64,000 nucleotides of DNA from Cenococcum geophilum (lineage: Eukaryota): contig CP158635.1 of assembly GCA_050273025.1 (NCBI GenBank), forward strand, positions 21,824,001 to 21,888,000. Reading direction: 5' to 3'. Positions 18,090 to 64,000 of the stretch are shown here, one piece after another (within the stretch, counting starts at the first letter, position 1; the number at the start of each line of letters is the position of its first letter). The translations under genes were made by a program, and so were the position numbers. Below the pieces are notes generated by a model. It worked only from the letters and a program-made list of their open reading frames with translations. It was not told the DNA's origin and did not search any database.

Positions 18090-18836
18090 ATGGCCTGCCC
18101 TCTCTCTCCTCTAGAGAACCTCCCCTCAGAGCTTCTCTAGCAGACATTCTCCCTGGCTATGAGCGTTCAGCTTCCACGTAGCGGTCCCGCGATCGCCGCG
18201 AAGCTAACCTCTGAGCACATCTTCTAGAAATACAGCACGCAGGTCCTATTCCCCGCGGAAAAGCAAAACACCCGAAGAGCTCCTCTAGCCGGCGAAAAGC
18301 AAAACGCGCAACTCCATCCGCGGCATCCTCAAAAGCTCCAAAGCCCCCTCGCAACATTCGCGAGCGCGCCCTCTCCCCCCCACCCCCCGCCTACGACCTC
18401 CTCAACACCCGTCTCCTCACCTGGCCACGCTTCAAAGCCAGCATCGAAGCCGGCCTGTGCCCCGCGGCCGCAGGAAAAAAAAGCCCCCAGGTGCATCCGC
18501 CGTCGCCGTCTTCCTCAACGACCCGGCCTAGCCACCATACCCGCCTCGCCCTGCGCAGAAATCCGCACCACCATCTTCGCGTACCTCTCGCACCTCCGCG
18601 CCTGCACCCTCCCGCGCAAGCTGCTCCGTGCCCTCCCCCTGGACCCCGGACTTGACGCGCTTCCTCTCCTTCCTCACCTGCCTCGGCCTGCGCGCGGCTG
18701 AAGGAGGCGCGGTTTGGGATTGCGAGGAGGCTGAGGTGGGTTAGGGGCGGGAGGGAGGAGGCGAGATATGTGTGGGTGGAGGAGGAGGAGGAGGTGGTGG
18801 TGGTGAAGGGGTTTAGGGTTGGGAGAGATGGGTAGG
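18090..18836 (+). pseudogene. Disrupted gene with an F-box-like N-terminal motif
   Basis: MACPLSPLENLPSELL*QTFSLAMSVQLPRSGPAIAAKLTSEHIF*K. In-frame TAG stops fall where CAG(Q) would fit. GC-rich coding-like sequence continues with frameshifts; the 3' end is approximate. Confidence 0.5.
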
Positions 18837-19088
18837 CGGTTGTAGTGTGGATGCGGTCTGGTTGGTGGTGCGGTAGGGTGTGCGAGGCGATCGTCGGGTT
18901 TTGTGACTTAAGAGTCGGGATAGCCTTATGTTATACGAGAATATCTATATAAGGACATGACTATACTTCTCTGTGAAACTTCTATGGCTTCGGTGGTTAA
19001 GAGATGCACTGGTTAGTCTTCTCCTTCGAAGCAGTCAGCAGAAGCTTCAGGAATAAGAATTGCATTTTTCTACGGCTTACATAAGAGA

Positions 19089-19281
19089 CTCCGCTTGGTG
19101 TAGTTGGCTTATCGTAAGTCAACTCAGCCTCGAATCAAATTCGAGTTCAAGTCTAATATTCATAGACGTTCGACTGTAATTGTATTCTTGCCATCGAAAG
19201 GTCCCTAGTTCGATTCTGGTAATACCTAGGCTTCTTTAGGAATTTCAACAAATACTAACAAGTTCAAATAGGGAGCGGAGA
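19089..19281 (+). tRNA. tRNA-Tyr-GTA: tRNA-Tyr(GTA) with three introns. Exons 19089-19113, 19166-19179, 19193-19218, 19272-19281; spliceosomal-type introns 19114-19165 and 19219-19271; canonical 37/38 intron 19180-19192
   Basis: Joined exons give 75 nt: acceptor CTCCGCT/AGCGGAG plus A73 (C1:G72, A73 eukaryotic Tyr identity), D-stem GTG/CAC, anticodon stem TTCGA/TCGAA with loop CT-GTA-AA, variable loop AGGTC, T-arm CCTAG-TTCGATT-CTGGG. Confidence 0.92.
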
Positions 19282-19293
19282 CAAATGACCACA

Positions 19294-19299
19294 TTTTTT
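19294..19299 (+). terminator. RNA polymerase III oligo-T terminator of the tRNA-Tyr gene
   Basis: T6 run 12 nt after the discriminator base, with a second T run shortly after. Confidence 0.8.
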
Positions 19300-19892
19300 G
19301 TGGTGTTATTTTTTGTTACTAGCCGAGTGGATGATCATTAGCGAATCTTAGCTAAGCAGGATATACACATCTCCGAAATCTAGCGAGGCGCAATCTCATC
19401 TAGCGATCAACCAATAAGTGACCTGCCAATTAAGCAATGGAGGGATCTAAGATGGAAACTCGATATGAGACGCAGTGCAGTGCAGTACCATTCTTGTTGA
19501 AGCGTGGTATGTTGGAAAGGTTCGTTATGGCACAGCACTGTATTTTGATGATCAATTAGACACAACCAACACATACTCCAGCAGGCAATATTGTGGGTCA
19601 ATATTGCAATTAGTTCAACTCATAAATTGATATCATCATGGCTCTAAAGCGGAAATGCAGTTCTCTATTTCTACGCCCAGAAATATATTAGAGCACGTGT
19701 ATTCCCCCATAACATGACCAGTCCATCCACACCCAAGAAGTAGCGAAGGCCCAAATGCACCAGCTCTAGATGGGGATCAGCGACAACTCCAGCAACCAGC
19801 GGCAACATCATTTTACCCTAACCCGTCTCGACATGACTTAGACAGAAAAGGGACTCATGAACAAGAGAACGTACGCGCAATATAATACAAAC

Positions 19893-29770: not shown

Positions 29771-32700
29771 CGGGGTCGCAGCTCGGCAAGGTTATGGAAA
29801 AGCTCGGCGAGGTCACAAAGTTCAACGGGGTCAGAACTTTAAGTTTGACTTTGTGACCTTGCTTAACTTCTGACCCTGCTCAGCTTCCGACCCCGCCGAG
29901 TTTGTGCATATGTAGCGCATATACCCAAAAAAATTAATATATAGAATTTAAAGTATTTAAAGTATTTAATAAATAACGAATATAATAAAACACTTCATAT
30001 GCATATGTAGGGTATATACATCCCCTAGCTGTAGTATAAAATACGCAAGCTAAGTTATTAAAACATGGCCCGTGCATACGCGTCGCATATCCATAATAAT
30101 AGCGGTTACACCATAACTTCTCCATAACACCACACGCCACGGGTATATTCTATATAACCTACACATAAGCGTTACATATGCTGACATAGTGCTAGTTAAA
30201 TTTAACTACTAAACTTTATTCTCGTATATGCCCTGCTTACGCTCACCATAAGCCTCTTAATTATTAATTTTAATAATCCGCAGGTGGCCGGCGCCAATAA
30301 CCCTAGTACCTTTGGCTACTACTATAGTAAGTATATGCTTTATATATGCCTATAAGAAGCATATACTAATAGAAGTATACAGGCCCGATCCCTAACCCTA
30401 ACCCTAATTAGGTAACACTAGGTTAGTTATAGAGAATATATATATAAGGTATATGCTCACAATAGACAAAGCACGCGCCGCAGCATTAGTAGCTGGTGGA
30501 AGGCGTAAGTAAACTAAGCGCCGTATATCTATAGCATATGCTAACCTTATACAGCCCTAGCTGTGACGGTATAGAACAACGTAAATAGGTGCCAGAAGAG
30601 CTTAACGTAAAGAGTGTGTATATACTAAGCGTAAACTAGACCTACCTAATCCCGCATCCGTGTTGTCTGCTATTAACTCCATAGTATAGGTTATATATCT
30701 ATACCTTCTATATAGCATATGCTAACAAAAAACATAGCTGCGATATTGTAGTAAATAGCACGCAGATATGCGGCCAGGTTTTTACCGCCTAGCTAAGCGT
30801 ATATTCCGCATACGCATAGCATCTGCTTTATCTACTAATATAGTTGTAGTACTACCGCCATATCCGTAACGAGCACAGCGGTGCCTATATGTATTACCGT
30901 ATAATAGCAGCTAAGGTATACGCTTACCATATATAGTGATAAACCCTCCTACTACTAATATGTTGGCCGTAGAGCTGATTGCGGGAGAGAAGTATATGCC
31001 TAGTATATGCTATGTATATACAACGCTAATACAATATAGCGCCCTAAAGTATTTTGTTTTGTCTGGCGGCTAGCGGGATACTAGGTACCTATATAAGCCT
31101 AGGTAGGTTATATATATACAATATATATATAGTACTAATACTAAATATAGCTGTGGCCCTTTAGGGTTAAGGATTGCGGAGTATATAGACGCCTATACTT
31201 TAATCGCGTATACTTACTCTATACCCAGTATATACCTAGCCCAAACTAACTAGATATAGTACCTAAGACTAGGGGTTTACTGCCTAATTTGGCAGGCAAT
31301 TCTATCGCAAGGTAAGAGCACTAGTATCGCTTCTATATATACGCACCATACCCTAATATGTCTATCTATCTATATATCTATATACTTATTCCCCCTAAGT
31401 TTAATTTTAGACCTAATAGTACTTGTAGGCCTAAGGGTAGCGTATACGAGGGATAACTATAGCTACTACTAGGACTACTGCCCGATTCAGAAACGAATAC
31501 TTATCTCTATATTTAGGACACTGGCAAAGTCTGACTTTATATAGGCCCTGCATATGCGTCACTAACACCACCACTTAGTTATATTGCTAGCTTATACGCG
31601 CATATACTACGTATATACAAACCCCTAATGTCTTCTACTAACTATAGATTAATATATGCTTATACTAGGCGTATGCTAATATAAGAGAAACAGTATATCG
31701 GCCCGTCTACTCCTTTAACCGGCTTAAAGCGCAAGGTTAGTATTTTACCTGCATATATTCGGCATATGCTAACTATATACATAGCGTGGCCCGACTCCCC
31801 CGGGCGACCGTAAGGAGTCTCTCTTACCGTCTACCCGCCGCTAAAGGGGCAAGTTTTCCTTACATATACTCTATATATGCACTACTAATATTTAGCAGCA
31901 GGGGGTAGAAAACCAGCCGGCCGTTGTTGTAGTAGTAGTAAGAGCTCTAGTAAGTCTAGTTCCTTCTATTGCGTATATTATGCTTATGCTTTATATAAGC
32001 CACGGGCGGAACCTACTAGTTATCCCGCCTCTCCCGCACTATATAAAAAGCTAGTATTAATCTTTAAGTTCTAGCATACGCTAGGCCTATATACTATATA
32101 CGTAGTGCGCAGTATATATAGTCGGAGTTTTAGTAGAGTTTATTCGGCGGATAGGCTAGGCATATACCTAATATAGGGCACCGGCCGATAGGCCTATATT
32201 AATTAATTCTTTATTTATGGTAACAGAACTCTACGTAATATTTATTATGTATATACCTTGCATATACACCTATATGCTAACACTATATTCCTACGCCCAC
32301 TTTTTAAGCTCTGCTAGTTCCTTTGCTTTATTATATACGTCTTTAGCCTATTTTAATTCATTAATTTGTTGCTCCATATTTTCTATATATAGCGTATATG
32401 CCTCCTTTTCTAGCTCCTTTATAGATAGGTAAGACCTATGCCTCTTACCTGCAGTCTGGGGGGTTTAACTTTAAGATAGTGGTGGCATATATGCTGTATA
32501 TGCGGTAAATATACGCGACGTATCCGATACTAATGCAATATTATTATCTACTGTACTTATCTGCGATATATTCTGTCTACTAAATATAGTAGGTTTAGGG
32601 GTGTTAAATGGGTTCCGAGGATTTTAGGGAAGATTTAGCCTAGGATTTCTAGCTTGCCGCTTAGCTGCTTTCCGCTATTTCTACGCTGCCTAAGCTTAGT

Positions 32701-35700
32701 ATATACTTTATATTTACATTATATATATATATATTGTTTCCGTAGCTATACCACTATCCACTTTAAGTTGTAATAATTTTTCTATATATTATCTATTCCT
32801 GCCTCTTTATATAGCTCTTATATATCGAACATTTCTTATATACGGAGTTTAAGCCTTTACTAAAATATTAGAATATACGGTGCATATACAGAGTATATGC
32901 ATTTACTGTAGCACTACGGCAAGCACGCATAACTTTCAACCGGTAAAGTTATTATCTTAAAAGTAACTACTTTTACCAATTCTAGTATGCTTCTGTGCAT
33001 ATGCCCACCACTTATAAGGGACCTTTAACTTTTCCTTTGCAAGCCCGGCTAGTATCTATATTTTCTTCTTATTGTTTATCTAAGACGTAAGCTCCGGATA
33101 CAGTGTACATATACTTTGCATACGCGCGATTAGTTTCTACTCTGTCTCCGCTTCCTATATCTGCTCTATAATATATCTTGCTTTATAAGTTAGAAAGCGC
33201 TTAGCAAAGTTCTATTTAATATATACTAGGCAGAATATAAGTATATACTAAAGGTGTTTATCCTATTTATGGGATGGGTTAAATATATATAGGTAGTCCC
33301 TAAAGCCTATATGTTATAAGCATATATTAGGCGTATGCAAAGCGTATACCAAACGTATACTTACCGCTAGCTTGTTTCTTATATATATTAACGATAGCTA
33401 TACAAAATCCGGTTCCGTAAATATATGTAAATTATATAGATGATTAAGCAGCATTACCTAAAACCTTAAATACTAGCTTAAACGTCTTTATATACGCAGC
33501 ACGTATTTCTAGGTTAAGAAAGGCGTATACCTATACCTTGATTCCTATTATCGGTATTAGCGTATATATGGCATATATATAGCATAGGGCATATATATAT
33601 TTAGAATTCTTATCCCATCCTACAATTAAGAATAGATTTGTTTTACCTTAAACCATCTTAAATAATAGGTCCATTTCCATATATGTTACGTGTTGGAATG
33701 CCTTGGCTTGTGCGTACATATAGTATATAATAAGGAAATGCTCATTATCAAAGTTATAAATTACCCGAATCTATTACTCGGTGTTCTCTTTATATTAATT
33801 AATAGAGAACTCGCGTAGTATACCTGCTCTACTTAGTCTTTATATATGCTTAGCATATATCTAACCTATACTTACCTATATATGCCGTCCCCTCTGGGAA
33901 TTGTACCATCCTCTCCTTTCTAATTAGAGCAGTAATTCGATTCTTAATATTAAGACTACTATACACTGCACGTAGTGTCTGCGCCCTATACTTCCTATAT
34001 AAAATATAGTACTACGGTAATAGGATAAATCGACCTATATAATAGTAAGTAGTTTTATTTATATATACTATGCATATATAGGGCATACGTATAGTAAGGC
34101 TTAGGACTTCCACCTGCCTTATTGCCTTAACTACGTTATTAGCAAGGTTAATTAGTAGCTTTATTAGGTACAGTGGATAATATATATAAGAATTCCGTGT
34201 AATAAGGCAAATATAAGGATATTGTGCTATATTAACAGGAATATAACAATCTAACTATGCACCGTATGCGCGGCCTACTACCCTGCCTTAGCCTTACGGG
34301 TGGTTAAATCCTGTGTATGCTTAGCATATGCATAGTATATGCAAAATATATACATTACGTACCGCAATATTTTCGCTTTAATGTTGCATATCTAATATAG
34401 GTACATTCTCGTTTAATTTCCTAAACTCCATATTTAATAAGTAGATGAAGGTATTAAATATCTACCTGGGCAGTTGTCGGTAATAAAGGCTAGGCAGTAT
34501 ACTATACTTTAGTATTACTACTGCTGGAACAACCGATAAACTCTACCTGTATATAATAAGCATATATTATGCATATACTGGCCATATGCGTACTCTATGC
34601 CGAAAAAATATCATTAGTCTGCTTTTACTACATACACGTTCTTATATACTAGGGTAGATATACTACCACCATAATTATAGAATACTGTGGTAGTAGCTGT
34701 ATATTATAAGCATATGCCTAATATATATAGACGACGCTTACTTCTCTGTGCTTTGCTTAAGCTTTTTATTAATCTCTACTGCCTAGTATAGATGACTACT
34801 ACGCTTTTAGAGGTCGTTAATTAATTTAAGCTTAACCTAATTATATGCCGAGTATATGCGGAGTATATCCTTATAGGCGTACTCGTAGTGTCTAATGCCG
34901 CTATATTTAAATGCTTAGTGGAATGCTTTTCTATTCTCCTAATTATTGGTTTCTCTAAGGAGTTTTAGTCGTATAATCTTAGCGTTACCAGTTTAATGGA
35001 ATAAGAATTAAATCTACTAGAGGTATAAATATAGCATATGCCTAGTATGTATATAGCTTACCTTTGATATATACTCCTTAATAACATCGCGTACTATCTC
35101 TTTATCTATATCTATAAATAGTAAAGGTGTTGCTTTATAAATAAAGTATGCAATTCCTTTTTTTCTAATTGCTAGATATTCTAGCATTATAATATAGTTT
35201 ATTACCTCTTAGATAATAACTTAATGCTTGCCGTTGGAGCTAATAAGTGCTCTATAGTCTTAGAGTATACTTTGGCTATTCTAAGCATATATATAGCCTA
35301 TGTATGGTATTATATATAGTTTTACCTTAGAGAGACCCATATAAAATAAAAGCCGCTATTATATACTATCTTAACCCTCGCCCTCCTTAGCTTCTTTATC
35401 TTTAATTTTCTCTCTATTAATTATATCATCTTAAGAACTATCGTCTTCGTGTTCGATGTTAGGTACGCTCTAGAGTACCTGTATATACTTAGCATATGCG
35501 TGGCATATAGTAGTGCAAACTTACTAGTAAGCCGTTTAGCCACGCTGCTATACTCTTATTTGCTTCAGTATTGTTTTCAGTTGTTATTAATATAGCGAGG
35601 CATATATAAATGCGCGTCTATATACGTGTATGTGTATGTGTATATTTATATATCCGTGTGTCTACGTGTCTGCGTGTCTGTGTACGTATGCGTAGCATAT

Positions 35701-35886
35701 GCCCTAGGTATTTAGTTTGTGCGGTCGCTTAAGTTAAATGTGGCTACCGATGCGCGTTCTATATGGGTAAAAGTGTGACCCCGCCGACCTTTTGCCGGTG
35801 GTTCCATCGGTGACCCCGTTCAACTTTCGCCGACCCCATCGGTGACCTTGTTCAACTTTTCCGTGACCTTGGTCAGCTGCACCCCG
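29771..35886 (-). mobile_element. 6.1-kb RIP-inactivated TIR DNA transposon, Mutator(MULE)-like transposase remnant, 8-bp TSD
   Basis: TIRs CGGGGTCGCAGCTCGGCAAGGTTATGGAAAAG vs (rc) CGGGGTGCAGCTGACCAAGGTCACGGAAAAG. TSD ACTAAAGC at 29763-29770 and 35887-35894. Minus-strand relics, read with RIP reversed: EMDLSFKMVQGKTNLFSIVGWD, VDMCKKQAS-GFGDYL, FCLVHxKxNF (CxxH), HTGIGESSH. Confidence 0.8.
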
Positions 35887-36487
35887 ACTAAAGCCCGTCA
35901 AAGCCACAGTCCAGTTCTTCGCCCCACTACCGCCCCCAACTGCCTCACTGCCAACGACACCCAACTTCGGCAACCCATGATGCAACTAACATGTGCAGAG
36001 GCGTGCAAGCCGAGGAATGCGAGCTCTTTGCCCCAGCTCTTTATTCCACCGCCTGTGTCTCATAGACATGGGACAGACGTTTGCACTATAGTACTTGTCG
36101 GCTTCCCCAAACGCCGGGCAACGCCCGGGGGGGGGGGTTGTTATGCTGCTAAAGAAGCTGGCCAACCGCCATCATTATGCAGCTACCCCGCGCATGAGCT
36201 GCAAGCTCCAAGACGAAGCTATCAAGAGCTATCACGCCCCAGCTGCTGGGTGAAGCTGCCAAGCTGCTTATTTATGATAAGCCCGCCCTGCCTTGCCCTG
36301 CCTTGATTTGCGTCTCTCTTGCTTAAGAGGTCCTCTTAAGGCCTGAGGTGACTGCTGCGGGATTAAGTACACCCTCTCACCTCTCCATATTTTTCCCGTC
36401 TGTCCAATCTCTCTTTCTTTCTGTCTTGCTCCCCTCGGTCGGCTTCCTTTGCTATAGCTTCATTTGGCTGGTTCCACCCCGCTCACA

Positions 36488-43809: not shown

Positions 43810-45144
43810 AGGGGTCGCAGGAGATTGTGACAGTGAGGCATTATTCAGGATTTACAGGTAGCCCCTCTACCCTTTGTAGTACTGTCTTGTGAAGCACCTC
43901 AGTTTGTTTACCAGAGTCTACCGGTTTTTGCGGTAGAGTCTATTTTGTAGCTAGGAAGCTCATTAAAGCCTTTAGAGTCCGCGAGTGCAGACCAAAAAGT
44001 AGCTTATTAGTTTATACGCTAGTTACAAACAGTGTAAGAGCCACGAGTTTTAAAGACTACCCTAAAGAAATCGTAAAGTCTTATAAATGCCTTATTGGTA
44101 ATCTAATAGTGGACAACAATCCGTCCTAAAATTAGTTCCCCTACCTTTAAGTTAAATTTGCTCGCTATAGGATAGAATTTATTAGGCGTTAAGCCTAACG
44201 CTTTAAGGTTAAACTAGATCATATTTATTTCTATAGGTAATTAAAGCTTTCTGCTAAGTTACTCTTAGAGTACGGATACACGTTTTACTTTCTTTTATAT
44301 AGCCTTTAACTTCCTACTAAGGAAAACGTCGTTAATGGCCGCTTATGCGGGTGCGGCAATTACCCTAAAAGCGCATATGCTACCGCCAAGAAGCTTATAA
44401 CTTTATTTTACCCGCTTAATAAAGACGGAGCTCCTAGTTATAATGCTACTAATTGGCGCGCTAAAACCCTTTATAAAATACAGCTAGATGCTGCTAAAGC
44501 ATTTGCTAATTTCTTAGAGGGTATAGAACCTAGCGGCAACCGCTTCCTAAAGGCGAGCTCTATTTAGATGTATGTAGATTAGGGGGTTCTAAGTATATGC
44601 CTACTAGGAGATAGCGCGAATATTAGAGAGGGGTATAAGGGTACCCCAAAGTGTGTTCTCTAAGGAGATAACCCAGGTTAGGCAGTTATAGATACTTTCT
44701 ATAATAGTGGCATGTTTCTTAACATTATCTAAAGTAAGGTAGTAGCCGTTAAACGGGATAACTATTCTAATTAAGGTACCGTAAAGGCTAGATACGCTAC
44801 CACCTTTAAGGATAGTAATGTGCGCATAATAGTTGGTAAGGATTAAGTAAGGTAGGGCTATAAAAGCGGATTGGAGAGCTACTTAATTACCTATAGTACC
44901 TAAGACAATAAGAAGAGAGGCTTTATAGCCTACTAAGCCAGTAATAAAGGTTTATAAGGAATTTATTATCTAGTTTTTATCTATATTACCATCTCTAAGG
45001 GATGTAGTAATAATGGCTTCTAGTATAGGCAGCGTAGGCTTAGTAAAAAAATCCAATCGGAAGTCATTTAAGGATTTATTACTACATCGGGAAAATATTC
45101 GCAGGATGAGATTTAAGTAGACTTTGGTTTTCGCGTTTCGCGTA

Positions 45145-45510
45145 ATTGACATGCAATTTGACCAACTTAACACGCAATTGACCAACTTGACACGCAGTTG
45201 ACCTACTTAACATGCAATTTAACCAACTTAATACGCAGTTGACCTACTTGACATGCAATTTAACTAACTCAATACGCAGTTGACCTACTTAACATGCAAT
45301 TTAACTAACTTAACACGCAGTTAACCTACTTAACATGCAATTTAACTAACTTAACACGCAGTTGACCTACTTAATATACAATTTAACTAACTCGATATGC
45401 AGTTAACCTACTTAATAACTTTAAAAGCTAACTATATATCCTTTGACACGCAGTTAACCTACTTAACAACTTTAAAAGCTAACTATATATTTCTTAACGT
45501 GCGATTAAGG
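45145..45510. repeat. Minisatellite, ~20-21-bp unit (TTGACACGCAGTTGACCTAC-like), RIP-diverged
   Basis: Direct tandem repeats visible in the sequence. Confidence 0.9.
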
Positions 45511-45594
45511 TAAAGTTATATATTATATATTTAACTATTATATATAATCCTATACAATCTTATACAATCTCATACAATCTTATAGTCTTATTAC

Positions 45595-45980
45595 TTGGAG
45601 GCTCTGCACGAGGCTCTACACAAAGCTCTGCGTACAGAGGCTCTGCACGAAGCTCTGCGCATAAAGGCTCTACACGAAGCTCTATACGAAGCTCTGCGTA
45701 TAGAGGCTCTACACGAAGCTCTGCGTACAGAGGCTCTGCACAAAGCTCTACGCATAAAGGCTCTGCACAAAGCTCTGCACGAAGCTTCGCATAAGGCTCT
45801 ACACGAGGCTCTACACAAAGCTCTGCGTACAGAGGCTCTGCACGAAGCTCTGCACGAAGCTCTGCACGAGGGTCTGCGCAAGGGTCTGCGCGAGGGTCTG
45901 CGCGAAGCTCTGCGTATAGAGGCTCTGCACAAGGCTCTACGAGAAGCTCTACGTACAGAGGCTCTACACAAAGCTCTGCA
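45595..45980. repeat. Minisatellite, 12/15-bp units (GAGGCTCTGCAC, GAAGCTCTGCGTACA)
   Basis: Direct tandem repeats; they produce the spurious EALH ORF. Confidence 0.9.
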
Positions 45981-46119
45981 TCGGGTCCCCGCTATATTCC
46001 CAATAGCCTCTACACGTGCCTCTACCCTATATAGCCACCTTATTTTTTACCCTTTCTTCCTTCTTTATATCCTCCCTACCTAGGGAGGCACCAGAACGGC
46101 AGCCAGCAGAGGACCGTTG

Positions 46120-47060
46120 CTAGAACTAGACGACCGTCGCCAGAACCAGATGACCGTTACCAGAACCAGACGACTATCACCAGCCAGACGACCGTCGCCA
46201 GAACCAGACGACCGTTGCCAAAGCCAGACGATCATCACCAGAACCAGACAACCGTCGCCAGCCAGACGACCGTTACCAGAACCAAACAACCGTCGCCAGC
46301 CAGACGACCGTTACCAGAACCAGACAACCGTCGCCAGCCAGACAACCGTTACCAGAACCAGACGACTGTCGCCAGAACCAGACAACCATCGCCAGCCAGA
46401 CGACCGTTACCAGAACTAGACAACCGTCGCCAGAACCAGACAACCGTCGCTAGCCAGACGACCGTTACCAAAACCAGATAACCGTTGCCAAAGCCAGACG
46501 ACCGTCGCTAGAACCAGACAACTGTCACTAGAACTAGACGACCGTCGCTAGAACCAGACAACCGTTACCAGAACCAGACAACCGTTGCTAGAGCTAGACG
46601 ATCGTCGCCAGAACTAGACAACCGTCGCTAGCCAGACGACTATTACCAGAACTAGACAACTATTGCCAAAGCCAGACGATCATCGCCAGAACCAGACAAC
46701 CGTCGCCAGAACCAGACAACCGTTACCAGAACTAGACAACCGTTGCCAGAGCCAGACAACCGTCGCCAGAACTAGACAACCGTCGCCAGAACTAGACAAC
46801 CGTCGCCAGCTAGACGACCATTACCAGAACCAAACAACCGTTGCCAGAACCAGACGACCGTTGCCAGAACCAGACGACCATCGCCAGAACCAGACGACCG
46901 TCGCTAGCCAGACAACCATTACCAGAACCAAACAACCGTCGCCAAAACTAGACGACTATTACCAGAACTAGACGACCGTTGCCAGAGCCAGACAACCGTC
47001 ACCAAAACCAGACGACCGTCACCAGAACCAGACAACCGTCGCCAAAGCCAGACAACAACG
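46120..47060. repeat. Minisatellite, ~18-20-bp unit (CCAGAACCAGACAACCGTCG)
   Basis: Dozens of tandem copies with C->T variants. Confidence 0.92.
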
Positions 47061-47112
47061 ACTAGCTAGCCAATACTATAAACAATTCAATCAATTAATT
47101 GAATTAAGGTAG

Positions 47113-47510
47113 CATAGACAGGTAGGCATAAACAGGTAGATACTAACGAGTAGGTAGATATAGACAGGTAGGTAAATATAGACAGGTAAGCAGATATAAA
47201 TAGGCAGGTAGATATAGATAGGTAAGTAAATATAGATAGGCAAGCAGATATAGATAGGTAGATAAATACTAACAGGTAGGTAGATATAGATAGGTAGGTA
47301 GATATAGACAAGTAGATATAAATAGGTAGGTAAATGTAGACAGGTAAGCAGATATAAATAGGTAAGTAGATGCTAACGGGTAGGTAAATATAAATAGGTA
47401 GGTAGATATAGATAGGTAGGCAAATGCAGATAGGTAGATATAGATAGGTAAGTAATATAAATAGGTAGGCGATGTAGGCAGGTAGGTAAGTCAATAGGTA
47501 GATAGGTAGA
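47113..47510. repeat. Minisatellite, ~18-bp unit (AGGTAGGTAGATATAGAT)
   Basis: Direct tandem repeats. Confidence 0.85.
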
Positions 47511-48469
47511 AGAGAACCATCGCTATATTATATTAAATTATCTAAAATAATAATATTTATTTTGCTAGCCTTATAAATAGCTTTAAAATAGCTTTTATTT
47601 ATTTAAAATATATTATTAGTATAAAAGAGGTAAATATAATTATTGTTGCCAAATGCGTAGATTGCTGGCAGGTTGCGCGCAGGTTACGTACAGGCTGCGC
47701 GCAGGCTGCGTGTCAAAAAAACACGACATAGGCTAGTCGGTCGAGTTGCTAAATGCCCTCAACTGCGCGCCAATTGCGTCAACCACCAACCATTGAGGCC
47801 ATTGAAAGGGTACCATATTTTGCCGATGTATATAACCACGCTAGACTAGAAAAGCCTTACACTTCTTAATAGGCATTAGTTTTCTTAAAGTTATATTAAT
47901 TAATCTTAGGCTTAAAGTAGATAGACGCTAAGTAATAATTAAAGTGTTAAGGCTTCTTTAAGGTAATAGACTATATATCTATTAGAAGTCTTATTAGGCT
48001 TTAAATACTAGCTACCTTATCTATAATAAGTTATATACTAGCTATTACTAGATCTATTATAGGATAAAATATATATATAATGCACTATCTATAAGGCTAG
48101 AGGAGTAGATAGTATAGGTATAGGTTATAATAATCGCAATAACTAGAATAGAGGTAGGATATCCGTTAAGCTAATTGAAAAAAGCAAAAGAATTATATAT
48201 AGATATATAAAATAAGTACTAAGTATCTAAAAAGTAGATAATATAATATATTATACTTTTAATAATACTGGCAAAAGAATATAGGAAAAATCCCAACACT
48301 ATAGTAATAAGCTACAAAATATATAAATTAAATAAAAATTTTACTCTAACTTATTATATTATGCCTAGCTTTATTATATAAGTAGCTAATATCCAAACTG
48401 TAGTGCTAGTAAGAGTCTAACATACTATGCCTATATACTATACCTATACCCTATAAAAAGAGCACTAAT

Positions 48470-49430
48470 AATTAGCCGCAGCTATATATAAGTCTAACGC
48501 TTTGGCTGCTTTATGCGTAGATATATACAGATCGGATTATACTGCTAAGTTAGAGGTATGGAAATCTTACTTAGGCTATTAGAGTAAGACTAGCATTAAC
48601 AATTAGTTATAGTATATACAGGCCTAGCACTCTAGCTGCTATATATATAGGTACGTATAGATTAGATTATACTACTAAGTTAAAAGTATAGAGATTTCAC
48701 CTATACTAACAGTTAGCCGCAGTATATGCAGATCTAGCGCTCCAGCTACTCTATATATAGGCACGCACGGATTAGATTATACTACTAGGTTAAAGGCATA
48801 GAAATCTTATATAGGTCACTAGAGTAGGACTAGCACTAATAATTAGTAGTAGTACGTATAGGTCTAGTGCTCCGACTAAGGTAAAGGTATGGAAATCTCA
48901 CCTAGGCCATTAGAGTGGGATTAGCACTAATGACTAGCCGTAGCATATAATCCGGCTGCTCTATACGTAGGTATGCACGGATTGGATTATACTGCTAAGT
49001 CGAAGGTATAGAAATCTCACTTATAGTCTATAAGACCTTTAGTATTCCCTCCCTTGTATACGCGCGCAATATACGGTAATTTCGCTTTATATATACTAGA
49101 GAAGTTTAGGTTTAACTCTTCTAATTAAGCTTAAAGAATTAAAGGCTTTACCTTTCTTACTAGTATATGGCTCTTTTAGCAAGCGCATAGTATCTACGCT
49201 AGATGGTGCATTTGTCTAGTAAATACTAAAATTGCTATATATTACGCGCGTATATAGGGGGGAAACACTAGAGATTTTATAGACTATAGGCTATTAGAGC
49301 GGGACTAATACTAGGGATTAGCTGTAGTATATCCAAACCCGCCCTAGCCACTGCTCTATGCATAGGCATACGTATTATATTATACTGTTATACTAGGGCA
49401 TAGAATTCTTAACTAGCTATAAGCGAGAAT
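48470..49430. repeat. About five degenerate ~100-125-bp tandem units upstream of the NRPS-PKS relic
   Basis: GATTATACT(G/A)CTA(A/G)GT...AGGTAT(G/A)GAAATCT...AGG..ATTAGAGT recurs at ~48535, 48665, 48775, 48880 and 48985. Confidence 0.75.
49024..49286. mobile_element. Tc1/mariner-type MITE (263 bp, ~70-bp TIRs) inserted at a TA within one repeat unit
   Basis: TA-TAGTCTATAAGACC...GATTTTATAGACTA-TA. Sister repeat units show the empty site AAATCTCACCTAGGCCATTAGAG. Confidence 0.8.
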
Positions 49431-51224
49431 AAGTAAGATATATTTAAGCGGCTTCTTATTAACTTTATAGTATAAGTAAACTACAACCTTTAACCTAGAG
49501 GAAAGATAAGTACTATTTTGGCTATAGACTACTAGATAGCGATTAAGCAATTTAATGCCACTAACGACACTATGAAGTTGGGATACTGTCTATACCGTCT
49601 TCTTTAAAACGCTACAGATAGCTACTTAAAAAAGACTGCCTTAATATATAGTAATAGGGAACTAACCTACTATGGTCTTAATACGCGCGCGAATTGTTTT
49701 GCCCGCGTCTTAGAGGAATAAGGTATTAGGTATAGTAACCTTATTAGCGTTACCTTAGACCGCTTTATTAACCTTATTATAGTGCTACTAGCCGTATTAA
49801 AGACGGGTGCCGCGTTTATACCTATTAACCTAGCCTTCCCTATAGATCGTATTAGATATATAACAGATAATGCCAGATTAAAGCTCGTTGTTATTAAAGC
49901 TAGTATATAAGATATATTATTATTTTAAAAAGGCGCGTGCTTAAATATAGACGAGGTTTAAAATAATACGGCGAACTTAAATATTAAGTAAAGAAACCTT
50001 AAAGCGGACGTAAGGGCAGAGGACCTTATATATGTAATATATATATCTAGCTTAACCAGAAAGCCTAAGGTGGTAGAGATTAGTTATAGGGCCTTATATA
50101 ACCTATTATACTTAATATAGCGGGAGCTAGGATATAGCGAAATAGACTAGCTACTTACTATAACGACCATCTATTTTAATATTATATTATTAGAGCTGTT
50201 CCTGCCGCTGCTTTACGGTATAATAACAGTTATAGCCTAGATATATAATATTAAAGACCTAAGCGCACTACTTGGGCTAATTTAGCGCTATAGCATTACT
50301 ATAATATAGGGTACACCCTTAACTTAGCAGATGCTACTAGAAATAGGCTAGTAAAAAGATCTCCGTCTCTCTAAAATCCTATATAGTGGTAATACGCTGC
50401 CCTAGCGGCTGGCTAAATAACTACTCCCCTATATAGAGTTAGTGTAGAATATATATAGTCTAACTAAGGTAATAGTATAGGCAAGCGTCTAAAAGGTGCG
50501 CTAGAGTTAGGAGGTAGTTATTAGTAGGCCTATTACTAACTATAGACTCTATATACTTGGTAAGGACCTTTTACTAGTGCTACTAGGGAGTGATGGCGAG
50601 CTATATATAGGCGGCGCCGGCCTAGCTAGGGGCTACTATAATAAGCCTAAGATTACTTAGTTGCGCTTTCTTAATAATCCCTTCTATAAGGGCCTTCTAT
50701 ACTATATAGGCGACATTACTTATTTTAAGGATATAGAGAGGCTAAGTATATTAGGTCGCGCGGATAGGTAGGTTAAGATCTGTGGCTATAGGATTAAGTT
50801 AGGCGATATTAAGGCCGCTATTACCAACTATAGCGATATATTGGAGGCAGTCGCGATTAGCAGGGATAATAGGCTTATTGCGTACTATATATAGGATGTA
50901 AGTATACTTGTTCCTATAGAGGCGCTTAAGCTAATATTTAGAAGTATACTGCGTCTATAGCTAGTTAAACGGCTACTAAAGTATATAATGCCGGCGTTCT
51001 TCGTTAAGATAGCAACCTTTCCTATAATACTTAATAATAAGATTAACTATAAGGCGCTTCTAGATCTAACTAAGGCAAAGCTACCTATTATAGGCTAGCT
51101 AATAATTAAGATAGAGTATAGTATTTAGCTTATTTAGTTAAGCGTCCTAGGCTACAACTAAATTAGTATCTATAATAATTTCTTTAAGATTAGCGGCGAC
51201 TCTATATGTATAGTTTAAGTATAA

Positions 51225-52179
51225 TAATAATAATAATAATTCATTGCTTAACGTCTGATTTGGATCCCTACTGGGCCCACGCGGACTACTCCTTATTTAT
51301 ATATGGGGAGAAAACTCTATTTAAGAAAAATGAGAAAACCCCGTGATCTATCTCCCCGCCTTTTGGGACTTGCCTGCTTAGCGCCTGCGAGTCGCCTGTG
51401 GTGCTCTACTACCTTACTGTTTGACCTCCTTAGAAACCACTGCTGCCGTAATAAGCCTACGGACGCGCTAGTATTATAAACTTTTACTCTACTACTGTAG
51501 AGTTACTAGGGGGCACCTGCTGCTTGCCCCCTTGCCTTCTATTATTATTTCCCTTGTAACCCGGAACTAATTTAGCATATTTTAACTAATAAGCCACTAG
51601 GTAACCGCCTTGAGGCCTTTTTTTGTTAAGAGTAGTGTATTATAGTTCTCTGTGCTAGCTGCTAAGAGCATTATTTCTTAATTGGTGCGTAGGGGGCATA
51701 GCAGTATTACGTGTTTTGGTGTCTGTCTTAGCTAGCCATATTTATATCTTAGGCTACCTACTAGAATACCCACCCAGTAAAGCTAATCTTTTAGTCCTAT
51801 TATTCCTGTTCTTAAGAGTATTGCTATTATATTTTCTACCTTTGTTAGGCCTTCTCGGAGCCCTTGGGTATTTACCCCCTATGGCGTTAACTATGCTATA
51901 GCTTGGGTTCGTCTTGCCTAAGTTAGCCTCTGTACCTTCGACTCCCATTTGCCTCTCTAGCGTTAGTCCAACTAGTATTGTATTACGGTAGATGGTTTCC
52001 CGGCGTTCTTGTGTGTTTTACTTTAGCTCCTTTCTCTATCTTGCTGTTGTCTTTGCTGACCTCTTGCGCGTCTCCCTTCCTCCTCTATATGGGCCTGGGC
52101 CCTAAAGCGGCACTATTCTTCTTCTGCTTTCTTTACCTGTTTCTCTAATATCTCTTCCCTACTTTGGGGTTGTTGGTTT
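51225..52179 (-). mobile_element. 5'-truncated LINE (Tad1-like) retrotransposon fragment
   Basis: (TAA)n tail at the left end. 16-bp TSD TATAGTTTAAGTATAA at 51209-51224 and 52180-52195. Minus-strand relic GLTK...AILLRTGIIGLKD.L....C.CG..RQTPKHVILLCP is the ORF2 C-terminal CCHC region. Confidence 0.85.
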
Positions 52180-55100
52180 TATAGTTTAAGTATAAAAGGA
52201 GGTAGAAAAGCTCCTAGGCTAGCCTTTATCCGCAGCTTAGCTATTTAAGCACTATATTATTAAGATACTAGCGGTATACCTAGATGGGGTGGAGAAGACT
52301 AAGGCTAAATATATACTTCTATAACCTTGTATATAAGATAATAAGGGCATTACTATCGTCTTTATGGCGTACCGGCTTCTCGGTAATGTAATTACGCCAA
52401 AAGAGTACTAGGAGCTACTTAAGCGCGGCGCTAACGTTACTAGTAACGTACTAGAGGACCGCTAAGACGCGAAAAGCCTTTATAATAATAACCTAGATAC
52501 TAAGGGAAAGTTATACTACTAATAGGGCGGGTTCCTTAGCTTAGTTAATAACTTTAATATATCCTTTTTTAGTATCTTACTAAGAAAGGCACGTGCTATA
52601 AACTTAGCCTAGCGCGTTATCTTAGAGACGTACTAGGAGGGATTTAAGCGTATAGGCTATATAGGCAAGTAGCTGCATAGTAGCTAGATAGGCGTCTATA
52701 TAGGCGTATATAATATTTTAGCACACTTATACACGCTAGCACTAGTAGATCTTAATAGGTATATAGTAATAGGCTTTACCGGAGGCACTATGTCCGGGCA
52801 TATCTTATATACGCTAGGCCTTAAGGGCCCGACTTTAATAGTAGACACTATATACTTGTTATTACTAGTAATAATATACCTAGTATATAATACGCTCTAC
52901 TAGGGTGAGTGTAATATAGTAGTGTCTAGCGGCGTAACGCTCCTACTTACCCTAGGTATATATATTTAGTTTAGCTAGCTCTAGGGTATATTAGCGGACG
53001 GGTAGTATTAAGCGTTTACGGCTAATATATAGGGCATAGGCTGGGCCGAGGGCTATATAGCAGTAGTACTAAAGCGGCTAAGCGACGCCGTCTGTGACGG
53101 CGACGCGGTATATATAGTGCTACGTAAAACCGCTATAAACTATAGGGAAGGAGCGCTGCGGGACTTATAGTGCCAAGTAGGCTAGTATAGCAGCGGCTAG
53201 TGCGTACGGCGCTAGCGCTATTAGGGCTGATGCTGGGTAATATTAACTATATTAAAGTATATAGTATAGGAATAAAGCTAGGCAATCTAATTAAGGGTAT
53301 AGCGCTAGCGGGTGTCTTTAGTGGAAGCTGGCCCGTTACGGAAGGGCCGCTATAGGTTAGCTTAGCGAAGTTAAACCTTAGATATATATAAGCGGCGGCC
53401 GGCCTAGTAGGGATGCTTAAAGTTATTCTAGTAATAAAGAATAATAAGCTCCCTCGGACGTTATATATAGAAATACCTACGTTAGCTATTAACTAGTATA
53501 GCGCCTATATAGCGCTTATATAGAAGAGCTAGCCCTAGTTATTAATAGTCGGCCAGCCGTAACAGGCAGGTATTAGCGTATTTAGTATTAGTAGGACTAA
53601 CGTATATACTATTATAGAGGAGCCGTTATTACTAAGTGTGGATTCCACGCCGCTATTAACCCTATTACCGCCTAAGATTCCATTTCTCCTATCTGGCTAT
53701 ACTAATGCTACCCTATACTAATAGGCTAAAAAGCTTTAATGGTATATTAAGAGCACGAGCAGCCCTAGATAAGATTGTCTTAGTAAGATAGCCTACTTGC
53801 TAGTAACCACCTATAGCCACTTTTAACGGCAACTTATAGTTATAGCTAAGGATAAAGCTACGCTTTTAGAGGGACTAGGCTTAGTTTTAAGCGCACTACC
53901 AGCCACTAACTATATTATGCAGCTACGCCTAGCTATACTGTTTACCGGCTAGGGTAGTTAAGTCGTGGGTATAGGGAAGGACCTTTATAAAGTCTACCCT
54001 ATATTCTATAATATATTAGACAAGATAACGTCCTACTTTACTAAACTAGAGACGCCGCTAATATATATAATATAGGCAGCTTCTAGTAGTAACGCCGCCG
54101 CGCTACTATAGTATACTAACTTCGCATAGCCCGCGCTCTTCGCCTTAAAGGTAGCCCTATGGCGTCTCTAAAAGAGCTAGGGCGTGTAACTAGATTTAGC
54201 GCTCGGCTATAATATAGGCGAGCTCGCTGCCGTATATATAACCAGCGTTCTAGACCTCGCTAATACTTATTATTTTATTATAGTATAGGGCTGACTAATG
54301 CAGGCCGTTTCTAGTTATGGTAGTATAATTTTGCTAGAAGCTGGTATAGAGGAGGTAACTAGAGCGATTTAGGTACTCGGCCTTATTAGTAAGGTTAATA
54401 TTACGGGCCATAACACGCTAATGTAGATGGTTATATCTAGTAATTCTAATGCAATTAAGGCTGTAGCGGTCTATTTTACTGCGTAGGGCTATAAGATAAA
54501 GTTACTTAATATATTATACGCCTTTTACTCGCACTATATAGATAATATACTAGGAGCTTTTTAGGCAGTAGCTAAGATGGTGCAATTTTACCTACTATAA
54601 TTACCTATAGTTAGCAGCTTAACTAGTAAGCTAGCTATAACAGGCGAGCTTAAAAAAGCTAACTATTAGGTCCGCTAGGTATATAGGATTGTTCGCTTTA
54701 CTAATAGCATTTAGATACTTTACTAATAGGGCGTTAGCGTCTTCCTTAAGCTAGGCCCGCAGCCTATATTAGCTAATATAGGTGTGGTATGCCTTACTAC
54801 TAATAGCGCTAGCTATATATAATAGTAGTACCTAGCCTAAGCTAATATAGACCGCTTTTACTTTAAGATTAGCTAGCAGGAAGCTAATATTAGTAATATC
54901 GCCCTGGGCGGCTTATAGGGTCTACTATATCCTACTAGGAATATGGCTAAAATATAAGCCTACGCGGTAAAGATAACTTTAGCATAGGCTAGTATTAAGG
55001 TACGTAAGGTTAGAAGTCTTTAAGAGGCTAGGGAGCTTTACGGTCTACTATATTTGTAGAACTTAGACGTTAACAACGTTATAGGCCTAGCGCGTAACTT

Positions 55101-55629
55101 AGCCGCAAAAGCGCTGGCGTAGCTGTAAACGGCAGCGCAGACTTAGTTTGCGCCGCCGCTAGTGTAGGTCACCCGCTATATAGTAGGTGCCGCTAGGGGC
55201 GACCTAGTAACGGGGCTTAGGGCTAGGCCGCTGTGGGGCCTAATACGCACCGCCTAAAGTGAACATCTAGAACTATGCCTGTGGTTAATAGATATAGATA
55301 TAGAGACGACCGCACCTAATGCCCTCGCCCTCGCCCTCGCCCTAGCGTTAATATTAGCAGCTAAGCCGGAATGCGCCGTATGCTAGGAGCTAGTGCTAGT
55401 GCTATAGATATAGCGCATTAGCCTAGTCCCGTAGCCAGCGAAGCAGCCACTCCTACGGTGGGACGGTGTGGTACTTATTATAGGTAGGCTTAGCAATCTT
55501 AGTTAGCGCGTAGCCCGCTAGCTGGCGAGTGTATATAGCATTTATAACTTAGTATTAACCTTACGCCGCGGTATAGCATCTTCTAGTACGGCCAAATTGG
55601 TAGCTATACTCGCTAGGCTTAGTACTAAG

Positions 55630-56055
55630 TGTTACGGACGCTTTAAGTACAATGTTACGACTACTTGGAGAAGAGTCGGAAGAAGCTAGTTAGTTAATAC
55701 AAGCACGGTCCAGGATGGAACCCGTGGAACCATGTGACGAAGAATAGTAGCCAAGGTCACATAAGGTGCTACGTAAAGAACGTAAGGAACAAAGGGAACT
55801 TACGTACCTTATATATAACACATACATTACGTATAAGAAGGATTTCATAGGAGTACGGTTATATATTTAAGGACCCTTAGTCCCTACCTAGATAGTTCCT
55901 TCCTTATAGTGATTCTTAGAATATAATTAGAGTTAATCTATTAGGTAACCACTCTACTAGTTATTATTACGTTATTAACTACTATCTTTACATTTCCTAT
56001 ACACCTAGCCCATTAATAGAACCCATTATAGTTCCTACTATAAGGTTCCGTTATA
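55630..56055 (+). repeat. 5' LTR
   Basis: Direct repeat of 63202-63627; differences are almost all transitions. Confidence 0.95.
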
Positions 56056-62000: not shown

Positions 62001-63201
62001 TAGAAACAGCTAAGGTAGTATAGCAAAGAATAAAAAAGTACTATAATGCTAAGAGATCTAAGGGACTAGATCTTAAGGAGGGAGATAAAGTATAGCTACT
62101 ATACAAAAATTTCAAAAGTTAACGACTAAGTAAGAAGTTAGACCACGTTAGACTAGGACCTTTTAAAATTATATAGAGGATTTCACCGGTTACATTTAAG
62201 TTAAACCTACTAGCTAAAATAAAGATCTACCCTATATAGTATATTGCGATACTAGAGCCAGTATATAGGAATATTAAGCTACTAGTTTACGAGGCAGATA
62301 TATATAGAGGATAGGAAGAAGATAAATAGCAAGTTTTAAAGATTATTAGTTATAAGGACATCGACAATAAAATATAGTATAAGGTTAAGTAGATAGGCTA
62401 TAATAAGACTACCTAGGAACCACTAGAGAATTTAAAAAATACTATAGGAAAGGTATAGGAGTATCGGAAGAAAATAGGTCAGGTAACATTAATAAAGAAG
62501 GATTATTAAAGAATAAATTACCTAAGGGGGACCTAGGAAGAGCGACTGCCGAACTACTTAGAGTTATTCCCCTCACCATAGGAGGAGAGTTAGTTCTCTT
62601 ATTACCCAGTTCCTGTAGACCTTATTTTATAAGTTTCTACTCCTTAAAATAAACCTTCTTACGTACTTTCTTAAGACAAAGTAGACGAGTAGACGCCGTA
62701 ATGCGAGTATCCAGAGCCTTTTATTCCGCATCCTAAGAACACTTAAGTTTAGTAAGGGCCTATACCAGGTTACTATTAAGCTTTATAGTAGCAGATTAAA
62801 CATAAAACCCTATAATAAATTACTTAGGGAACTTAAAGACTATTAAGAGTTATAGGACGCGCATACTTAGCGTTAGAGGTAGAGCGAATATCGCAAGACA
62901 ATTAAATGTTTGCTTTAGTGCACTCTAAATAAGAGGAGGGTTACTGAGATAAAGGACTCGCTAGCGTAATATACACTAGCCCTTCTTTTAAGCAACGAGA
63001 ATACGGAGATGGCATTATTTTACTAAGCGATAGTATTATAGCAATAGTATAAGCACAACGTTGCGCGTATAAAGAAGAAGAAGCTTTAGGCATTATAAGT
63101 AATAATATCAACTAAATTAATTAGACGGATATTACACCTCTAGTAAATAACTTAGAGATACTAGGTATCTTTAAGGACAAAGATAAAAAGGAGGGAGATG
63201 G

Positions 63202-63627
63202 TGTTATAGACGCTTTAAGTACAATATTACGACTACTTAGAGAAGAGTTAGAAGAAGCTAGTTAGTTAATATAAGCACGGTCTAGGATAGAACCTGTAGA
63301 ACTATATAACAAAGAATAGTAGCTAAAGTTATATAAGGTGCTACGTAAGGAATATAAGGAATAAAGGGAACTTATATACCTTACGTATAACACGTATATT
63401 ACGTATAAGAAGGATTTTATAGGAGTACGGTTATATATTTAAGGACCCTTAGTTCCTACCTAGATAGTTCCTTCCTTATAGTAATTCTTAGAATATAATT
63501 AGAGTTAATCTATTGGGCAACCACTCCACCAGTTATTATTACGTTGTTAACTACTATCTTTGCATTTCTTACACACCTAGCCTATTGACAGAACCCATTA
63601 TAGTTCCTGCTACAAGGTTCCGTTACA
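63202..63627 (+). repeat. 3' LTR
   Basis: Starts TGTTATAG after the polypurine tract AAAAAGGAGGGAGATGG and ends GTTACA. Confidence 0.95.
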
Positions 63628-64000
63628 CTAAGGCTACTATTATAGCCTGTAATATAGCAGACTTTAACAGTATAAAGGCGATTATAGTAGTCTTTAATAA
63701 GGACCGGCCGCTGTGGGGTATAGTTTATATAGCTAGTGTATAGGACAACGGCGTCCTTACCGCCTTAACCCTATAGCGATACGCCACGGCCTTCACGCCT
63801 AAGGTAAACGGTACCTAGCATCTACACTAGCTAACCTATGACATAGATATAGACTTAGATATGTTTGTTATGTTTTTCTCTATCTCTAGCATTATAGGCA
63901 TGCTGGGTTATAGTAACTACGCTATTACTAATACGTTTCTTAATGCGCTTACGTACCTACGCTATACCTAGGGCCTACCTATTACCTTATTAGTATACGG

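Follow-up and report, generated by a model that had tools for sequence, protein, structure and literature searches.

Textbooks keep tRNA splicing, which is carried out by a protein endonuclease and a ligase, separate from spliceosomal splicing. Eukaryotic tRNA-Tyr genes generally carry an intron after nucleotide 37; fungal U3 is a Pol II gene; and a tRNA-like unit, the MALAT1 mascRNA, is released from a Pol II transcript. We know of no natural cytoplasmic tRNA that depends on Pol II. Among the nearest described counterparts of the gene considered here is the U6 gene of S. pombe, which, according to the summary given in PMC5855946 (citing Tani and Ohshima 1989 and Frendewey et al. 1990), is transcribed by Pol III, is spliced by the spliceosome, and carries its B block inside the intron. 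A 2017 survey gives U3 and U6 as the sole small structured RNAs in which introns are known to be frequent, with tRNAs unlisted there (PMC5832005). In the literature outside subscription-only papers no account of tRNA genes with spliceosomal introns came to light, and a 2023 review on how tRNAs are made brings up the spliceosome solely as a contrast to tRNA splicing (PMC10275265).

The locus described here lies in a window of 64,000 nucleotides, the whole stretch of DNA that was analysed, and is a bona fide gene for tRNA-Tyr(GUA), from a fungus of ascomycete type, in which the D stem and the T stem are each split by a spliceosomal intron. Like S. pombe U6 as summarized in PMC5855946, it is a gene for a small structured RNA that combines Pol III boxes with spliceosomal interruption, and where the B block of U6 is intronic, a B-box-like 9-mer stands here in intron 1, at a good distance from the A box. 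The two genes differ in that U6 itself belongs to the spliceosome, and the presence of an intron in it is attributed to reverse splicing at the catalytic centre, a route with no obvious equivalent for a tRNA; moreover, tRNA-Tyr has two such introns and a tRNA-type intron besides, its true B box is exonic, and its use of Pol III is something that we infer. The likeness to fungal U3 snoRNA genes, so far as the survey describes them, lies in GT-AG introns placed in stems that form only after splicing (PMC5832005). With the canonical and non-canonical tRNA introns cut by the tRNA-splicing endonuclease (reviewed in PMC10275265 and PMC4090602) the gene shares one such intron, of 13 nt, after nucleotide 37. 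The additional pair differs from these: at 52-53 nt both are as long as host mRNA introns, both end in GT..AG and include a branch site, which in one of them is a perfect TACTAAC, and in the D and T stems, where they lie, the eye finds no bulge-helix-bulge.

The gene occupies positions 19089-19281 of the forward strand, to which all features belong except those of the antisense RNA, and comprises three exons, two GT-AG introns and one canonical tRNA intron. Exon 1 (25 nt, 19089-19113) supplies the 5' strands of the acceptor and D stems, the D loop, and nucleotides 22-23. The remainder of the D stem, the anticodon arm with its canonical intron (13 nt after nucleotide 37, placed by ARAGORN at 19180-19192), the variable loop, and the T arm as far as nucleotide 63 come from exon 2 (53 nt, 19166-19218), and exon 3 (10 nt, 19272-19281) adds the final two T-stem bases, the 3' strand of the acceptor stem, and the discriminator A. 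Intron 1 (52 nt, 19114-19165) has a GTAAGT donor, a CTAAT branch-like site and a TAG acceptor; intron 2 (53 nt, 19219-19271) has a weak GTAATA donor, a TACTAAC branch site at 19253-19259 and a TAG acceptor. Both have the attributes of U2-type spliceosomal introns, namely a GT donor, a CTRAY branch site close to the 3' end, a YAG acceptor and a host-typical length, the candidate mRNA introns of the window measuring 50-104 nt and the RNA-verified antisense intron beside the gene 57 nt. The A box, TGGTGTAGTTGG (19096-19107), corresponds to tRNA nucleotides 8-19, and the B box, GTTCGATTC (19208-19216), to nucleotides 53-61. An earlier, sequence-only reading of this DNA had listed these and other motifs, and every string was found where it had been placed. 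It had also stated that each intron begins shortly 3' of a box and breaks a stem, which is the case: intron 1 starts 6 nt past the A box and interrupts the D stem between nucleotides 23 and 24, and intron 2 starts 2 nt past the B box and interrupts the T stem between nucleotides 63 and 64.

Presented with the unedited window, ARAGORN reports no tRNA and Rfam yields no match. Only when both GT-AG introns are excised in silico does ARAGORN call a 76-nt tRNA-Tyr with a 13-nt intron, and the doubly spliced construct then has a GUA anticodon, a standard cloverleaf, and Watson-Crick pairing at all seven of its acceptor positions. The pair C1-G72, the discriminator A73 and the GUA anticodon, all found here, are what we take to be the tyrosine identity elements. 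Excision of intron 1 alone, or of neither intron, gives no tRNA; excision of intron 2 alone leads to the spurious call of a 91-nt "tRNA-Met" containing a 50-nt intron, a result showing that ARAGORN can over-call edited constructs. As a control, 58 constructs were built at all 22 B-box-like sites of the window with zero, one or two candidate introns removed. A tRNA was obtained solely at this locus, with exactly these two introns excised, and the constructs at 20 other B-box-like sites revealed no further hidden split tRNA gene in the window. Genes of this kind escape standard tRNA finders, and the numbers of tRNA genes counted in fungi are accordingly too low. The neighbours of the gene are an ankyrin-repeat gene and the two genes for the ATP-citrate-lyase subunits, an arrangement typical of filamentous ascomycetes.

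Several features of the introns had been offered as signs that selection maintains a Pol III transcript, and we asked of each how far it exceeds chance. The longest run of T is 2 in intron 1 and 3 in intron 2, and there is no run of four anywhere in the 193-nt gene, so the statement that neither intron contains such a run is accurate. It does not serve as evidence of selection. The probability of a run of four or more was 0.15 for intron 1 and 0.19 for intron 2 in mononucleotide shuffles and 0.035 and 0.446, respectively, in dinucleotide shuffles; such runs occur in three of the seven ORF-joining candidate mRNA introns of the window, a small set and a partly doubtful one; and a pair of introns free of them is expected by chance in approximately 33-69% of cases. 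T-run avoidance was therefore rejected as a selection signal for these two introns. The two reported hairpins are both present, and they part company in the same test. Hairpin 1, in intron 1 (19129-19145; 7 bp with a 3-nt loop, arms CTCGAAT at 19129-19135 and ATTCGAG at 19139-19145), is modestly unusual, with a z of -2.67 and 4 of 200 shuffles folding equally well. Hairpin 2, in intron 2 (19225-19240; arms CCTAGG at 19225-19230 and TTTAGG at 19235-19240), has a z of -0.01 and is equalled by 94 of 200 shuffles; we rejected it as a feature on account of this chance-level fold and of a T>C change at 19237 that breaks one of its A-T pairs in a diverged strain. Four control introns gave folding z values from -0.32 to +1.93. 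The intron features cited earlier, the lack of T runs and the hairpins, thus do not show selection, and with the former and hairpin 2 at chance level nothing about selection on a Pol III transcript can be concluded from them.

One further fold at the locus is absent from the sequence-only reading. A 10-bp hairpin at 19102-19124, in which D-loop and A-box bases 19102-19111 pair with intron 1 bases 19115-19124, has a predicted energy of -15 kcal/mol (computed over 19096-19130) and a z of -4.97, and none of 200 shuffles folds equally well. The donor of intron 1 is hidden within it. Such a structure could be a trace of how the intron originated, or it could be a brake on splicing; a donor sequestered in this way should hinder splicing that lacks co-transcriptional help, and we counted the hairpin against the Pol III route. 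Neither intron has a second copy within the window, as members of an introner-like family would.

Other elements of the locus are of Pol III type. A good A box together with a good B box recruits Pol III almost by default via TFIIIC. Both boxes here are uninterrupted and are identical, over the stretches that could be aligned, to those of a conventional tRNA-Tyr paralogue; their intactness adds no information of its own, because the structure of any tRNA demands these conserved bases in its D and T loops. The distance between the boxes is 100 nt, a spacing that exceeds that of ordinary tRNA genes. Yeast TFIIIC spans 202 bp at SNR6 (PMC9136082), and the spacing here, being shorter than that, was counted in favour of the Pol III route. 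The B-box consensus that had been noticed inside intron 1, GTTCAAGTC at 19145-19153, begins 37 nt past the A box. Over the two strands of the window together the pattern GWTCRANNC is found 22 times, where 19.6 would be expected, and in the 105 intron bases 0.018 occurrences would be expected, so that this one is above chance by what is a post hoc test; the element may help TFIIIC.

Behind the gene stands a Pol III-type terminator with a back-up. The T6 previously reported at 19294-19299 starts 12 nt beyond the gene's final base; 9 nt further on, at 19309-19314 (27 nt behind the gene), stands a second T6, which had gone unmentioned. Runs of six or more T number 43 in the 128,000 strand-bases of the window, a density at which 0.012 would be expected per 35 nt, and nowhere else in the 64 kb do two T6 runs fall within 35 nt of each other; the pair is the strongest of the above-chance Pol III-type signals. 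The spacing matches a pattern described in yeast, where a weak first terminator is backed by a second within 40 nt, and since yeast Pol III frequently continues for 50-200 nt past 6U terminators (PMC4937561), we no longer took transcription beyond the first T6 to speak for Pol II. Taken together, the intact boxes, the 100-nt spacing, the lack of an internal run of four T and the paired T6 terminator bear out the earlier view that the gene is compatible with Pol III transcription. The separation of those Pol III signatures that exceed chance (the double T6, the intronic B-box-like motif and hairpin 1) from those that do not is new here.

Transcription was followed in a stranded public RNA run (X21), approximately 12% of which yielded 241 reads aligned to 18300-19800, and contigs of runs X1, X3 and X17 were aligned to the same interval. 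Two observations fixed the strand: reads from the minus-strand ATP-citrate-lyase gene, in its 3' UTR, have the first mate on the plus strand, and so have all 20 reads that skip 19024-19080, an interval with GT..AG only on the minus strand. Splice joints were listed from at least three reads upward, and the X21 library favours long RNAs and is biased against those of approximately 115-220 nt.

The dominant RNA over the tRNA locus is antisense. This non-coding transcript runs on the minus strand over the whole tRNA gene (from 18836 to approximately 19320) at an X21 depth of 28-77. It is unspliced at the tRNA introns and spliced at an intron of its own (57 nt, 19024-19080, minus strand; GTAAGC donor, CTGAC branch site, AG acceptor), which is skipped in contigs of X1 and X3 as well as in the 20 X21 reads already mentioned. 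Fragment ends of the antisense RNA accumulate at 19218, 19258 and 18836. A coding role was considered and rejected, there being stops in all three frames and no ORF. Active tRNA genes normally block Pol II, and that the antisense RNA, a Pol II transcript, starts within the 3' part of this gene and crosses both boxes was counted against the Pol III route.

On the sense strand, the alternative raised by the sequence-only reading, a Pol II read-through transcript from an upstream gene that hosts the tRNA, holds in one part and fails in the other. Sense depth in X21 is 10-21x over 18300-18554, 2.6x in 18555-18605 and 0 over 18606-18860 (18766-18812 being masked), and the RNA of the upstream gene, whose ORFs match no Pfam family, ends approximately 480 nt 5' of the tRNA; read-through from that gene was rejected for this run. 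What survives is the suggestion of a Pol II-like transcript, in the form of sense molecules with a long leader. Sense depth is approximately 2 across 18861-19113, including 19014-19064, where the signal is not strand leakage because nearly all of the antisense RNA is spliced away there. The sense reads probably begin near 18861-18911, and they cross a T5 run (19065-19069) that ends 20 nt short of the gene. A long leader across such a run is Pol II-like, and Pol III would not be expected to start there.

Within the gene the sense depth follows the exons. It is 2.9 in the bin that holds exon 1, 0.04 in 19116-19166 (intron 1 and the first base of exon 2), 2.86 in 19167-19217 (exon 2), 0.08 in 19218-19268 (intron 2) and 0.73 in 19269-19319 (exon 3 and trailer), and the 0.04 is accounted for by two reads that touch 19166 alone. 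Two exon reads derive from the paralogue, as their joint with foreign letters reveals, and were subtracted. The approximately two that remain span the whole of exon 2, with the 13-nt tRNA intron still in place, and halt exactly at both intron borders; by bin arithmetic, at a number below the threshold for listing joints, approximately two sense reads without either GT-AG intron extend into leader and trailer. In contig 11 of X3, 19271-19800 follows on 19199-19217 without a gap: intron 2 has been removed exactly, and what comes next is the trailer of this locus. X3 is presumed to be RNA (a guess of the tool), and its contigs at the locus are without the antisense intron, as RNA would be. The contig ends exactly where its 31-mers would match the paralogue, as a real junction would behave in a 31-mer graph, assuming assembly from 31-letter words.

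Pol II-type spliced precursors exist, and the strand-resolved picture is new: abundant antisense RNA, no read-through from upstream, and long-leader sense RNA that has lost both GT-AG introns and kept the tRNA intron. The sequence-only reading had predicted that the spliceosome acts before the tRNA-intron endonuclease, and the approximately two sense reads that lack the GT-AG introns and retain the 37/38 intron fit that order, which accordingly has support, thin as it is. No short-leader (Pol III-type) or unspliced sense molecule was seen among the 241 X21 reads; the bias of the library against RNAs of approximately 115-220 nt makes this absence weak evidence in either direction. The same reading had supposed a Pol III transcript spliced without a cap. 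The missing cap is not a given, as 5-22% of Pol III pre-tRNAs are capped according to the 2023 review (PMC10275265).

A diverged strain represented by X17 and X21, in which approximately 4-5% of flank bases differ, keeps both GT-AG introns with their splice signals unchanged. The sole exon change is 19108 C>T in the D loop, which turns a C-G pair of the 19102-19124 hairpin into U-G and so retains the pairing; the introns carry the 19237 T>C change in intron 2 and two 2-nt indels. Two nucleotides immediately after the last base of the gene (19281) are missing in that strain, and the double T6 is kept, apparently lengthened. There are 2 substitutions in the 193-nt gene against 9 in 210 nt of flank (Fisher p = 0.064), a difference that we entered on the side of the Pol III route, and none of the conservation contrasts is significant (p = 0.064, 0.17 and 0.30). 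The conventional tRNA-Tyr paralogue, which has no GT-AG introns, is found in contig 3 of X1 and has a T6 approximately 10 nt downstream, a terminator of the same kind as that of the split gene; the two tRNAs can be told apart by the D loop and nucleotide 31. The intron-containing pre-tRNA of the paralogue is represented by two reads in the stranded RNA run, and we counted this and the shared T6 in favour of the Pol III route.

Pol III is a plausible enzyme for this gene, and of the routes considered we regard transcription from the internal boxes, followed by the spliceosome, as the most likely, at a confidence somewhat short of even, because the boxes are as in the expressed paralogue, the spacing is shorter than the TFIIIC span at SNR6, the terminator is typical, and S. 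pombe U6 provides a precedent. Pol III would transcribe from the A and B boxes and end at the double T6; the spliceosome would excise both introns post-transcriptionally, as in fission yeast U6 snRNA; and the cloverleaf would form afterwards, so that RNase P, RNase Z and the tRNA-splicing endonuclease could act. Since the D, T and acceptor stems need both introns out, the end-processing enzymes and the tRNA endonuclease should follow GT-AG splicing, an order with which the approximately two reads retaining the tRNA intron are consistent. That the productive precursor is made by Pol III is what we infer; low-level Pol II sense transcripts, also spliced, and the abundant antisense RNA cross the locus as well. 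We are more doubtful of a fuller scheme in which the order is fixed (the spliceosome on a CTD-less Pol III transcript, then RNase P and RNase Z, then the tRNA-splicing endonuclease), the intronic B-box-like element bridges TFIIIC, the introns are kept free of T runs, and antisense RNA from inside the gene competes with or tunes this process; as a whole it has in our view a lesser, though still appreciable, probability. At the far end of the scale lies the suggestion that there is no gene at all, and that tRNA-like exons and intron signals have merely fallen together. The silence of ARAGORN and Rfam on the unedited window and the over-called "tRNA-Met" would allow it, but a perfect 76-nt cloverleaf with tyrosine identity elements at 1 of 22 B-box-like sites, a near-identical conventional paralogue, and the exact removal of intron 2 in one contig make it highly improbable.

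A productive precursor transcribed by Pol II from its own start approximately 80-230 nt upstream is a substantial possibility, in that the only sense molecules seen have long leaders crossing the T5 run. In that case the introns would be spliced co-transcriptionally, RNase P and RNase Z would release the tRNA, the 13-nt intron would come out last, and the Pol III signals would be inherited leftovers. Splicing is normally coupled to Pol II. The sense depth across 18861-19113, including its nearly antisense-free portion, favours such a transcript, as do the 0.04, 2.86 and 0.08 of the successive bins, which fit approximately two reads that have lost both introns while their leader, trailer and tRNA intron remain; sense RNA persists downstream at 1-6x (19320-19625), the spliced junction of X3 extends to at least 19300, beyond the first T6, and a TATA-like TATATAAG lies at 18946-18953. 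There are parallels in the literature: tRNAs can reportedly be processed out of Pol II transcripts (PMC6445147), and in insects the RNase P RNA is reported to have moved from Pol III into a Pol II intron (PMC6797745). If the long-leader RNA is the precursor, its release by RNase P and RNase Z would resemble that in the engineered tRNA-guide RNA arrays described in PMC6445147, although the units of those arrays, like the MALAT1 mascRNA, are without spliceosomal introns. Against this, the evidence consists of approximately 5-6 sense reads, probably from two fragments, with joints below the three-read threshold, in a library that favours long RNAs; a depth of approximately 2, compared with 34 for the neighbouring 3' UTR, is very low for tRNA supply; passage beyond T6 does not discriminate, since yeast Pol III does the same (PMC4937561); and the double T6 kept in the diverged strain is needless for a Pol II host. 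We consider it improbable that the gene is a redundant or decaying copy, with real introns spliced in pervasive transcripts, little or no tRNA made, and Pol III-like features that are recent relics. At least one conventional tRNA-Tyr paralogue is present in the same organism, sense RNA is very low and antisense RNA dominant, the donor of intron 2 is weak and that of intron 1 is buried, and no conservation contrast reaches significance, all of which speak for such a copy. The cloverleaf, however, is defect-free, with seven Watson-Crick acceptor pairs, C1-G72, A73 and an intact canonical intron, and in a strain that has diverged by approximately 4-5% the sole exon change is one D-loop base, the other three changes in the gene being intronic and leaving the splice signals untouched.

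A tRNA that is obliged to pass through the spliceosome breaks the separation between tRNA splicing and spliceosomal splicing. The gene is also a natural substrate on which an old question, how far splicing depends on Pol II, becomes testable: it represents either the splicing of a Pol III transcript that lacks the help of a CTD or the transfer of a tRNA gene to Pol II.

Relatives of the locus were sought by pattern in other collections. A pattern made of the T arm plus a donor matched five loci in metagenomes, none of them tRNA-Tyr, and these resemble chance matches in bacterial DNA; the pattern of tRNA-Tyr exon 2 matched no locus in the genome contig and viral contig collections searched. Nearer to hand, the tRNA-Tyr paralogue of X17 reads GTACGT directly 3' of its B box, 2 nt upstream of the position that corresponds to the intron 2 site, and by its letters this looks like the start of another spliceosomal-type intron.

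An abundant, spliced, non-coding RNA is transcribed from the minus strand across the entire tRNA-Tyr(GUA) gene (19089-19281, plus strand); it extends over 18836-19320, with an intron at 19024-19080, and in X21, a stranded raw RNA run from a diverged strain, its depth is 10-30 times that of sense RNA. The antisense RNA appears to start within the 3′ part of the tRNA gene. In the same run, antisense-labelled fragment ends cluster at 19218, the final base of exon 2 (six molecules), and at 19258, the intron 2 branch-point adenosine within TACTAAC (seven molecules), and these two clusters may be antisense start sites. Both positions match splicing landmarks exactly.

Sense RNA is also present at low level in X21 over 19320-19625 (plus strand), past both T6 runs of the terminator (19294-19299 and 19309-19314), at a depth of 1-6 with its maximum at 19422-19523. 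This RNA either continues the sense tRNA transcript or belongs to a distinct transcript that converges on the minus-strand ATP-citrate-lyase gene.

Upstream of the tRNA gene, the 10-mer CTAYGGCTTA (19070-19079, plus strand) is common to this gene and to the leader of a paralogue, lying approximately 19-21 nt before the first tRNA base; it may be an upstream promoter or start-site element that the two genes share. In the window, the antisense intron (19024-19080) has its donor in the complement of this 10-mer. Farther out, a TATA-like TATATAAG (18946-18953, plus strand), which precedes the tRNA gene by approximately 140 nt, might drive the long-leader sense RNA.

Within the gene, bases of the D-loop and A box pair with the start of intron 1 in a 10-bp hairpin (19102-19124, plus strand; z = -4.97, equalled by 0 of 200 shuffles), and the GTAAGT donor of intron 1 is buried in it. 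This hairpin is far stronger than the two intron hairpins of the sequence-only reading (19129-19145 and 19225-19240). The start of intron 1 and the end of the preceding exon are almost reverse complements of each other, a relationship that may bear on the origin of the intron.

Outside the window, the same organism carries a conventional tRNA-Tyr gene that lacks GT-AG introns and ends in T6 (X1 contig 3). In a tRNA-Tyr paralogue of the diverged strain (X17 contig 6), GTACGT comes immediately after the B box, at a point 2 nt 5′ of where intron 2 is inserted in the window gene; this suggests that a second tRNA-Tyr gene has a separate spliceosomal-type intron of its own.

A GGA/GGT-rich low-complexity tract (18766-18812) lies between the expressed region upstream and the 3′ end of the antisense RNA; contigs break at this tract in all runs, and it was masked during read mapping. 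On a larger scale, long AT-rich stretches occupy 30001-36000 and 44001-64000 (GC 0.30-0.45), whereas the gene-rich part is approximately 50% GC, and GC and AT skew are both strong over 56001-62000.
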